Virus record (IMG/VR): IMGVR_UViG_2585427729_000009
Location: 1 to 8,025 of that record
Strand: one strand, 5' to 3'
Source of the DNA: a virus
Lineage: Duplodnaviria; Heunggongvirae; Uroviricota; Caudoviricetes
DNA: 8,025 nt
A program made the position numbers and the translations under genes. A model generated the notes under the pieces. It did not search any database. It was not told where the DNA came from and saw nothing but the letters and a program-made list of their open reading frames with translations. Of the stretch, positions 1,394 through 2,275 are shown one piece after another. The stretch's first letter is position 1, and each line of letters begins with the position of its first letter.

Positions 1394-2275
1394 TTATGAC
1401 CACTTTTTGTTTGGGTTTCGTTGGTGAGCGTGGTTTATAGGATTATTTGATATACCCCATAACTCTGACTCGCTTATCTCTACACGAGAGAAAGACCTGC
1501 TTTCTTTCAGTTCTTTTATAAACCTAGAACCTAAGATGACATCTATTGTACCAGAAAGTTCTTGTAAAAGATCTTTGTTTTTTCTGAGGAAGAAAATATC
1601 TTCTTTATATTTAATTTTTACATAGAATTTATTCTGTATTTTTAATATATCAAAGCATGGCAGATATCTATATCCCTCATATTTTCGCCACTGCTTAACA
1701 ATTATAACATCTTTTTCATTTACTGCATTAATCAGCCCAAGACCAAGTACAGGTATGAATATTCTATTGTCTGCCGAAAGCGTACAATTATCACCACCAG
1801 GCAAATATGTATAAATCATGTCGGAATTTTTATACGCATCAACGAATGCACGTAAGAAGCGTACATATTTTTGCCATCCGTTTATACCGAATTTACCATA
1901 TAAGTATTCTTTATTTGTTAGAAGAAAACTATTTGTATCAGGATCCTTATCTACAGACCTGTCGATAAGATCTCCAACTACGTTTACAAAGTCAAAGACA
2001 GAGTTTAATAAGAACAATTGTCTTTCAGTAGGGCGAATTTCAATTATGTAGCCAGGATGAAGACGATATTGCATCTGCTTACGAAGTATACCGAACGCTT
2101 GGGTCCGAGCATCTGAAAGCAACTTCTTGTCGCCATCGCCGTGAGCATTGTTTCTAATAAAACTGATATAATTTGCTAATTTTTCAGCCTCTTTTTTGTG
2201 TTTTTTTCGCTCTGATGCTGAGTCTATTGGTTTTGGTATGGACTTGTAATCAATCTTCTTCATTACGTACCTCAT
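1394..2275 (-). CDS. Hypothetical protein (293 aa), AT-rich accessory gene (moron) translationally coupled to N; function unknown, candidate exclusion/defence gene
   Basis: Long uninterrupted ORF ([18 protein letters not shown]...) with visibly low GC compared with flanking lambda-like genes. Its ATG rc(2273..2275) overlaps the N stop rc(2272..2274) as ATGA. An alternative start is Met5, rc(2261..2263), preceded by GAGG. I recognise no motif in it. Confidence 0.75.
   Translation of the reverse strand: [293 protein letters not shown]

Follow-up and report, generated by a model that had tools for sequence, protein, structure and literature searches.

A gene directly behind N in a lambdoid prophage ends in the Nun arrest peptide and points to a targeted transcription-arrest factor with a predicted TnpB-like core

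What kind of protein does a lambdoid phage make from the position directly behind its antiterminator gene N? The question is raised by an open reading frame (ORF) in the window, the whole 8,025-nucleotide stretch analyzed here (IMG/VR virus record IMGVR_UViG_2585427729_000009, positions 1 to 8,025; Caudoviricetes). The ORF lies between an ea10 homologue and N at 1394 to 2275 on the minus strand, is open throughout, and encodes 293 amino acids, or 289 from its second ATG. An original prediction had placed it correctly and had taken it for a candidate exclusion or anti-phage gene without a recognizable motif, at the site where lambda carries ral and sieB. We found that its last 13 residues, which that reading had overlooked, are identical to those of HK022 Nun, and that most of the remaining protein is predicted to resemble part of TnpB. 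We consider it probable, at roughly 60%, that the product is a modular transcription-elongation arrest factor, made immediate-early, in which Nun-like arrest is joined to a new targeting module.

The C-terminal tail carries much of this argument. Residues 277 to 289 (numbering follows the 289-residue version unless the 293-residue one is stated) matched HK022 Nun 97 to 109 at 13 of 13 positions, both in an alignment to chain N of PDB 6ALG and through PHROG 5632. The PHROG 5632 match was limited to residues 275 to 293 and the PDB match to Nun to residues 267 to 293 (293-residue numbering), and the rest of the protein found only weak, unrelated matches among PDB chains at E ≤ 10. Nun 87 to 109 is the only ordered part of Nun in the cryo-electron microscopy structure of its complex with elongating polymerase, and it carries all known arrest determinants: N97, H98, and H100 touch RNA, template DNA, and the β' rudder; R102 pairs with the C-terminal carboxylate; K106, K107, and W108 pack between the hybrid and downstream DNA; and H93 and R94 touch the upstream DNA duplex (PMC5386594). 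The N103A replacement is neutral, R94A weakens binding, and removal of the last 13 residues abolishes both the activity of Nun and its binding to RNA polymerase (PMC5386594). At high levels, Nun is toxic and arrests any elongation complex (PMC5386594). We compared the tail codons of six members of the 290-residue family with those of three nun genes. Across these nine genes, N97, H98, A99, H100, R102, K106, K107, and W108 were invariant and were encoded by two to four codons each, and replacements occurred only at positions 101, 103, 104, and 105. The eight invariant residues are the seven Nun contact residues plus A99. On this codon evidence, the tail is under purifying selection in a pattern that fits the functional map of Nun, and it was retained in homologues of 36 to 68% identity on Escherichia coli, Pantoea-like, and Morganella contigs. 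Residues 260 to 289 were predicted to be disordered in our AlphaFold2 model, as would suit a peptide threaded into the cleft of the polymerase.

The tail-coding DNA also has a history of its own. Near-identity to HK022 begins at the codon for N277 and runs to ~70 nt beyond the stop; in HK022, the homology stops at IS903. This stretch is therefore a mosaic recombination joint as well as a coding sequence. A 9-bp inverted repeat, GTGTATTCA...TGAATACAC (window 1308-1340), follows the gene, either inside the HK022-shared segment or at its border, and the IS903 of HK022 sits inside this repeat.

The body of the protein is of a different kind. A first AlphaFold2 model from 4 sequences had a mean confidence (pLDDT) of 45 and was unusable, whereas a model from a 22-sequence alignment reached 79 overall and mostly 84 to 96 over residues 11 to 220. 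The structure prediction and Foldseek comparison that the original prediction had called for returned TnpB/Cas12-type folds, with weak E-values: the best matches were Cas12l, Cas12k, Cas12f, and Cas12p in the PDB and giant-virus TnpB-type "transposases" in BFVD. We aligned the family profile by hhalign to a TnpB profile (67 sequences, TnpB residues 1-181; the ISDra2 TnpB sequence was confirmed as exact) and obtained a score of 26.6 (P 0.003), compared with 12.8 ± 2.2 (maximum 22.4) for 100 column shuffles and 12.8 for the reversed profile. A relaxed alignment was collinear, with ORF residues 66 to 224 set against TnpB 1 to 179, and paired several segments, one of them with TnpB LKLPKLGWVK. The two proteins have in common a strand-Pro-x-x-x-Q helix start, a "...LP.LG.I/V..." strand, and a "g.yy..I" hairpin. 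We conclude from the model that residues ~66 to 224 resemble the N-terminal WED-REC-WED half of TnpB, Cas12, and Fanzor proteins (ISDra2 TnpB, PDB 8H1J and 8BF8; RdCas12n, 9UDI). In TnpB, the WED/REC half is the part that grips nucleic acid. The basic N-terminal extension that precedes this core was present in the Nun-tailed phage branch and absent from a distant branch of the family, of which four members carry other, unrelated N-terminal extensions. The linker that follows the core holds a conserved segment, which the distant branch has as S..YSRVDF.

Unlike TnpB, Cas12, and Fanzor, the protein has no RuvC lobe. No RuvC signal appeared past residue 224, where alignment confidence was zero and the protein ends ~65 residues after WED, and neither a catalytic D-E-D triad nor a RuvC nuclease domain was found. 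A zinc-finger/TNB domain with CxxC pairs was likewise absent, the only two cysteines being at residues 160 and 203. The phage copies of the gene do not lie within a transposon. We considered whether "GTIDVILG" derives from RuvC motif I (GVDVGIK) and rejected this, since it had no alignment support, the Asp is not conserved, and model confidence there is low. Only when the alignment was forced, at zero confidence, could the Nun tail (NHAHQRD/NP) be set against TnpB RuvC motif III (ETHDRDENAA); the match is too short for judgment, and we likewise set aside descent of the tail from that motif (THDRDEN). Nor did the Lys-rich N terminus pass as an N- or Nun-like arginine-rich motif (ARM) with EK...[YW] spacing: its Tyr and basic pattern are lost even in a 68%-identical homologue whose N ARM is nearly identical. 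The Lys-rich helix is present, but it is poorly conserved and cannot be aligned, and no boxB-binding ARM was found.

The Nun tail was found on other proteins as well, and often in the same place. In PA28 and Stx1a phages, a full nun gene overlaps the 3' end of an N whose ARM is unrelated to that of lambda, and the full-length PA28 ORF (L005:2480-2833; Stx1a phages are alike) is 92.7% identical to HK022 Nun; its RefSeq annotation covers the last 45 codons only. Hafnia phage Pocitis76 (L063:1240-2180) has N followed by two tandem Nun-tailed mini-proteins, ORF43 and ORF42. The head of one copies the lambda N ARM, MDAQARRREKRKAKQEEWKKQNP; in its partner, the ARM is of another kind and the tail has diverged (H100S, K106L). 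Neither carries an annotation beyond "transcriptional regulator." At L046:4797-5171, an ORF that could encode up to 124 amino acids represents a third variant of Nun, with ARM ARNRRRDERQRQRDQRS and tail VVNHAHQRDPRKKWS. These proteins have the tail motif VNHAHQR..KKW in common with the ORF product and, in PA28 and Pocitis76, the slot 3' of N; unlike it, they are 88 to 124 amino acids long, with various ARM heads and no globular domain. In both PA28 and Pocitis76, the phage's own N ARM is unlike that of lambda and the adjacent Nun ARM is of the lambda-targeting kind. From these sequences, the tail would be a module borne on several heads, with the slot behind N as the place where phages keep it, and the readable heads appear to be aimed at the nut sites of other phages.

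That the ORF is a real gene is clear from its length and position, which are kept in the 36- to 68%-identical homologues on E. coli, Pantoea-like, and Morganella contigs. Profile searches gave no match in Pfam, NCBIfam, or PADLOC, and in PHROG only to families 5632 and 12139. The latter, to which no function is assigned, covers the full length (E 3.8e-205; residues 5 to 293 in 293-residue numbering versus profile positions 1 to 289). No similarity to SieB or Ral was seen in any of the four collections, so the proposed analogy to those genes gave way to a likeness to nun. As had been noted, GC content is lower than in neighboring genes (0.345, with 0.30 at third codon positions, versus 0.46 for the window and 0.49 for N). 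The predicted ATGA overlap with N is present at 2275..2272, but the start that is conserved lies further in. PHROG 12139 and the annotation of the same gene in phage 434 both begin at MKKIDYK, a GAGG-type Shine-Dalgarno sequence lies 6 to 8 nt upstream of the second ATG in 6 of the 6 family members compared, and in the relative L002 the upstream ATG at once meets a stop (ATG AGG TAA). From these three observations, the start that the family conserves is, almost certainly, the second ATG (2263..2261), which makes the 289-residue product the most likely one.

The phage 434 gene, CPT_434_48 (UMO75312.1; GenBank OL657226), is 99.7% identical to the ORF and has the same neighbors, N and ea10; the immunity region differs, the window having a different cI. 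The OL657226 record labels it "Nun C-terminal peptide-containing protein" on BLAST grounds. The phage 434 genome announcement does not mention the gene (PMC9119081), and our literature search found no paper that discusses CPT_434_48 or connects either phage 434 or TnpB with Nun. As far as we could find, the gene has appeared only as an entry in an annotation, and an architecture of TnpB-like WED/REC core plus Nun arrest peptide is undescribed.

The surroundings of the gene bear on when it would be expressed. It lies within a few bases of the 3' end of N, both in the window and in its E. coli, Pantoea-like, and Morganella relatives. A hairpin with a U-run lies ~5 to 30 nt past the stop in every lineage, strong in five and degenerate in the window and HK022; it is the sole conserved RNA structure there and shows compensatory changes. 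Because this hairpin recurs in every lineage, the gene would close the first, N-independent pL transcription unit. In a consensus scan, the only promoter-like site upstream on the coding strand was the repressible pL, with none inside N, and the strong hairpin after cI should shield pL, N, and the ORF from transcription of cI. It is therefore unlikely that a repressed lysogen expresses the gene, which from its sequence looks like an immediate-early lytic gene. The relative L040 differs in having no N: after cI and pL, its 290-residue gene comes first among the ORFs, in the slot that nun has in HK022. A GC-rich leader of ~300 nt (L040:4665-4974), with no Rfam match there, precedes it. L040 may be an N-independent (put-like?) phage.

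Given these results, we propose the following mechanism. Transcription would start at pL, cover N and then the gene, and reach the gene before the first intrinsic terminator; translation would use the gene's own ribosome-binding site, which overlaps the N stop codon. The product would thus belong to the earliest, N-independent wave that follows infection or induction. The Nun-identical peptide, at the end of ~30 disordered C-terminal residues, would bind the elongation complex as that of Nun does and block translocation. Alone, the tail would bind any elongation complex weakly; the WED/REC body and basic helices, to go by the fold, would supply specificity or affinity in place of the boxB-binding ARM of Nun, by binding some feature, in DNA or nascent RNA, that lies on the elongation complex or beside it, and they may compensate for the lost H93/R94 contact to upstream DNA. 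Our guess at the target is non-self transcription, whether of a competing or resident phage or of the host. Lambda-type nut complexes are an unlikely target because the phage itself uses a lambda-type N and nut, and a pL-driven burst could also act broadly because Nun is toxic and nonspecific at high levels.

Several observations weigh against this reading. The likeness to TnpB comes from one AlphaFold2 model built on 22 sequences and a modest profile score (P 0.003), while a HMMER profile search of PDB sequences found nothing relevant and a comparison of the 22 family members with Pfam gave only noise and no TnpB model match. We saw no guide-like RNA: the last 260 nt and the downstream flank had no conserved structure except the terminator in a comparison of six sequences, which has low power. 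The counterparts of Nun H93/R94 are not conserved (N/N in the window; G/Q, D/K, V/S, or G/G in homologues). The absence of N from L040 means that a functional link to N is not obligatory. Finally, about 8 of the 35 E. coli-type copies on viral contigs are frameshifted, (5'-)truncated, or interrupted (L031-L037, L041), which suggests that the gene is dispensable, and perhaps costly, in prophages. In E. coli genomes (matches H72-H74), one copy carries IS1.

We considered four other explanations. Possible, in our estimate, is a protein that is not aimed at competitor phages at all and instead shuts off host transcription or regulates the early transcription of its own phage, by arresting N-unmodified complexes or feeding back on pL. 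Immediate-early timing together with N, the tight linkage to N in most lineages, and the capacity of abundant Nun to arrest any elongation complex would all suit such a role. It would, however, leave late Q-dependent phage transcription unprotected, it sits poorly with L040, and the small nun genes with foreign ARMs in the same slot favor an anti-competitor role; moreover, that N-modified complexes resist the tail is our own supposition. Somewhat less probable, and on balance unlikely, is a classical superinfection-exclusion factor like HK022 Nun, which lysogens would express weakly and whose target would be the early transcripts of a single heteroimmune phage family. Here, the original prediction of an exclusion or anti-phage gene is partly borne out: the protein carries the tail of Nun, a proven exclusion factor, the slot 3' of N holds nun-type genes in PA28, Stx1a phages, and Pocitis76, and the L040 gene occupies the very slot of nun; the positional argument of that prediction likewise favors exclusion. 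Exclusion from the prophage is nevertheless doubtful, since the terminator after cI (2945..2928) and the dependence on pL make the gene look silent in a lysogen, and the lambda-type nut of the phage itself excludes the target of Nun. The original prediction therefore points the right way, for the wrong reasons.

The other two explanations concern what the two halves of the protein do. The core might make it an RNA-guided DNA-binding regulator like TldR, a nuclease-dead TnpB derivative, with the Nun tail of secondary importance. TldRs keep the overall TnpB fold and RNA-binding interface (many are C-terminally truncated), use an adjacent guide RNA, and occupy promoters to block initiation; prophage-encoded TldRs with C-terminal truncations exist and repress transcription. 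The ORF product likewise would be TnpB-derived, is free of nuclease, is carried by a temperate phage, and is predicted to act on transcription, and the distant branch sits on an IS200/IS605-like cassette of ~870 bp with a structured 3' end. We nonetheless regard this explanation as improbable. Unlike TldR, the protein lacks the entire RuvC lobe, which holds much of the guide-RNA scaffold of TnpB, and carries an elongation-blocking peptide; the 3' region and flank showed no conserved RNA structure save the terminator, an Rfam scan of the 3' region gave no match, and no Pfam TnpB model matched. Conversely, the tail might be a nonfunctional by-product of mosaic recombination with an HK022-like phage, in a protein that acts apart from RNA polymerase. 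The almost identical DNA at window 1435..1327 and a joint inside the tail-coding region are what such an origin would leave, but the tail is not merely a scar, because L002, L003, L038, L040, and L042, whose DNA has diverged, keep the peptide through synonymous changes, and its invariant and variable positions match the Nun functional map. We judge this last explanation very improbable.

These comparisons leave an arrest factor with a new targeting module as our preferred reading, and they set it apart from its closest precedent. With HK022 Nun, the ORF product shares its last 13 residues, a disordered tail, the N/nun slot of the pL operon, and homologous DNA downstream. It differs in size (289 residues versus 109), in lacking an ARM, conserved H93/R94, and any similarity outside the tail, and in its predicted folded TnpB-like body. 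It also differs in that its phage uses the lambda-type N/nut that is the target of Nun itself, and in that it is probably not expressed from a repressed prophage.

DNA matches to the gene occurred in 117 of 5,426 complete E. coli genomes, and 83 of them covered at least 80% of the gene; some shorter ones were only the 39-nt tail-coding stretch, probably in nun genes. Every match was chromosomal, and of the full-length copies listed, only one does not adjoin an annotated N. A collection of 5.8 billion proteins held only four clusters of the gene, to which an exhaustive HMMER search added the Pantoea-like (47% identity) and Morganella (36%) relatives. The distant branch consists of proteins of 213 to 326 amino acids with ~20% identity, which have the core and the S..YSRVDF segment in common with the phage branch and end in a different conserved tail, GGLPSLGKRR. 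A single-protein scan of reference genomes with one distant member, P0027, gave no match. Another, P0022 (239 amino acids), is found as an identical protein in three unrelated neighborhoods, each time inside the same ~870-bp cassette. The cassette starts sharply ~30 nt before the ATG at (GTTA)GTCCACAG and ends 120 nt past the stop at ...GGTCCGTTA, with a GC-rich nested hairpin near its 3' end. It looks like a nonautonomous IS200/IS605-type element carrying a RuvC-less TnpB-like gene, and this likeness supports TnpB ancestry independently of the fold. Neighbors in the distant branch are of conflict type: a HigA-like antitoxin with DUF4365 and an Upf1-like helicase in one case, a methyltransferase with an HNH nuclease in another. 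One distant member (L058:2793-6136) lies beside ORFs read from their sequences as von Willebrand factor A (vWA), PP2C-like phosphatase, and Ser/Thr-kinase-like, with no Pfam match on record; this trio appears to resemble the TerY-P triad.

From left to right, the window is a lambdoid prophage early region with gam, kil, cIII, the ea10 homologue (DUF2528, 837..1205), the ORF, N, nutL/pL, cI, cro, cII, O, P, ren, and nin. Upstream of cIII/kil, at window 719-777 on the minus strand, Rfam recognized an intact lambda cIII thermoregulator RNA (RF01804, 88.5 bits, E 4e-21). The coordinates of the features are collected in Table 1.

Table 1. Features of the gene, its surroundings, and the distant-branch cassette (window positions unless another contig is named)
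Feature	Coordinates	Strand	Basis or remark
Strong intrinsic terminator-like hairpin and T-run between ORF and ea10	1222..1253	-	Phage 434 record has a terminator at the equivalent place
DNA near-identical to HK022 nun 3' end and downstream flank	1327..1435	-	Nucleotide alignment; HK022 annotation
Weak hairpin (CCGC/GCGG) and interrupted T-run straight after the stop	1371..1392	-	Homologues have a strong intrinsic terminator there
Gene, 289 amino acids plus stop (MKKIDYK...NPNKKWS)	1394..2263	-	293-residue version begins 12 nt further upstream at 2275
Nun-identical tail, residues 277-289	1397..1435	-	6ALG chain N alignment, PHROG 5632, codon analysis
Low-confidence linker, residues 225-276	1436..1591	-	pLDDT 37-56
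Predicted TnpB/Cas12-like WED-REC-WED core, residues ~66-224, no RuvC after it	1592..2068	-	Predicted fold
Basic two-helix N-terminal extension, residues 1-65, net charge +8	2069..2263	-	AlphaFold2 helices 16-38 and 43-65, pLDDT ~85-96; alignment
Shine-Dalgarno GAGG of the ORF	2270..2273	-	Overlaps N stop TGA (2274..2272)
Antiterminator N, 107 amino acids, lambda-type ARM (MDAQTRRRERRAEKQAQWKAAN)	2272..2595	-	Pfam N36, E 3.4e-26; ATG 2595, stop 2274..2272
nutL boxB hairpin GCCCTGAAGAAGGGC, lambda type	2753..2767	-	Read in sequence and hairpin scan; phage 434 record has nutL at the equivalent place
pL-like promoter, TTGACT / 17-nt spacer / TACTAT	2823..2851	-	Consensus match only; position agrees with pL in the phage 434 record
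Strong terminator-like hairpin straight after cI	2928..2945	read on both strands	T-run on the cI strand
P0022 cassette copies	L059:1399-2269; L060:2494-3365; L061:697-1563		

A wider and more speculative view, which we hold only tentatively and think unlikely as a whole, is that in this family temperate phages have exapted TnpB a second time, independently. The WED/REC module, possibly with an RNA cofactor, would recognize a specific DNA motif or nascent-RNA structure and deliver the Nun peptide into a polymerase that has just transcribed the site. The protein would then terminate elongation at an address set by sequence, in conflicts between phages or between phage and host, and the GGLPSLGKRR relatives would deliver a different C-terminal peptide to another target.

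Phage 434, which carries this gene, has been studied since the 1950s. Nun itself has been regarded as a single case, in which an ARM is attached to an arrest peptide. Our data suggest that the arrest peptide is portable, that different targeting heads can carry it, a folded TnpB-like domain among them, and that Nun-tailed genes have settled repeatedly in the slot immediately behind N. To judge from its sequence, the architecture suggests a targeted transcription-arrest factor of a kind not described before. If this is true, it would represent a new way of targeting elongating RNA polymerase, TnpB exaptations would gain a RuvC-less form that acts on elongation, and the protein would offer a compact scaffold for engineered site-directed transcription arrest.

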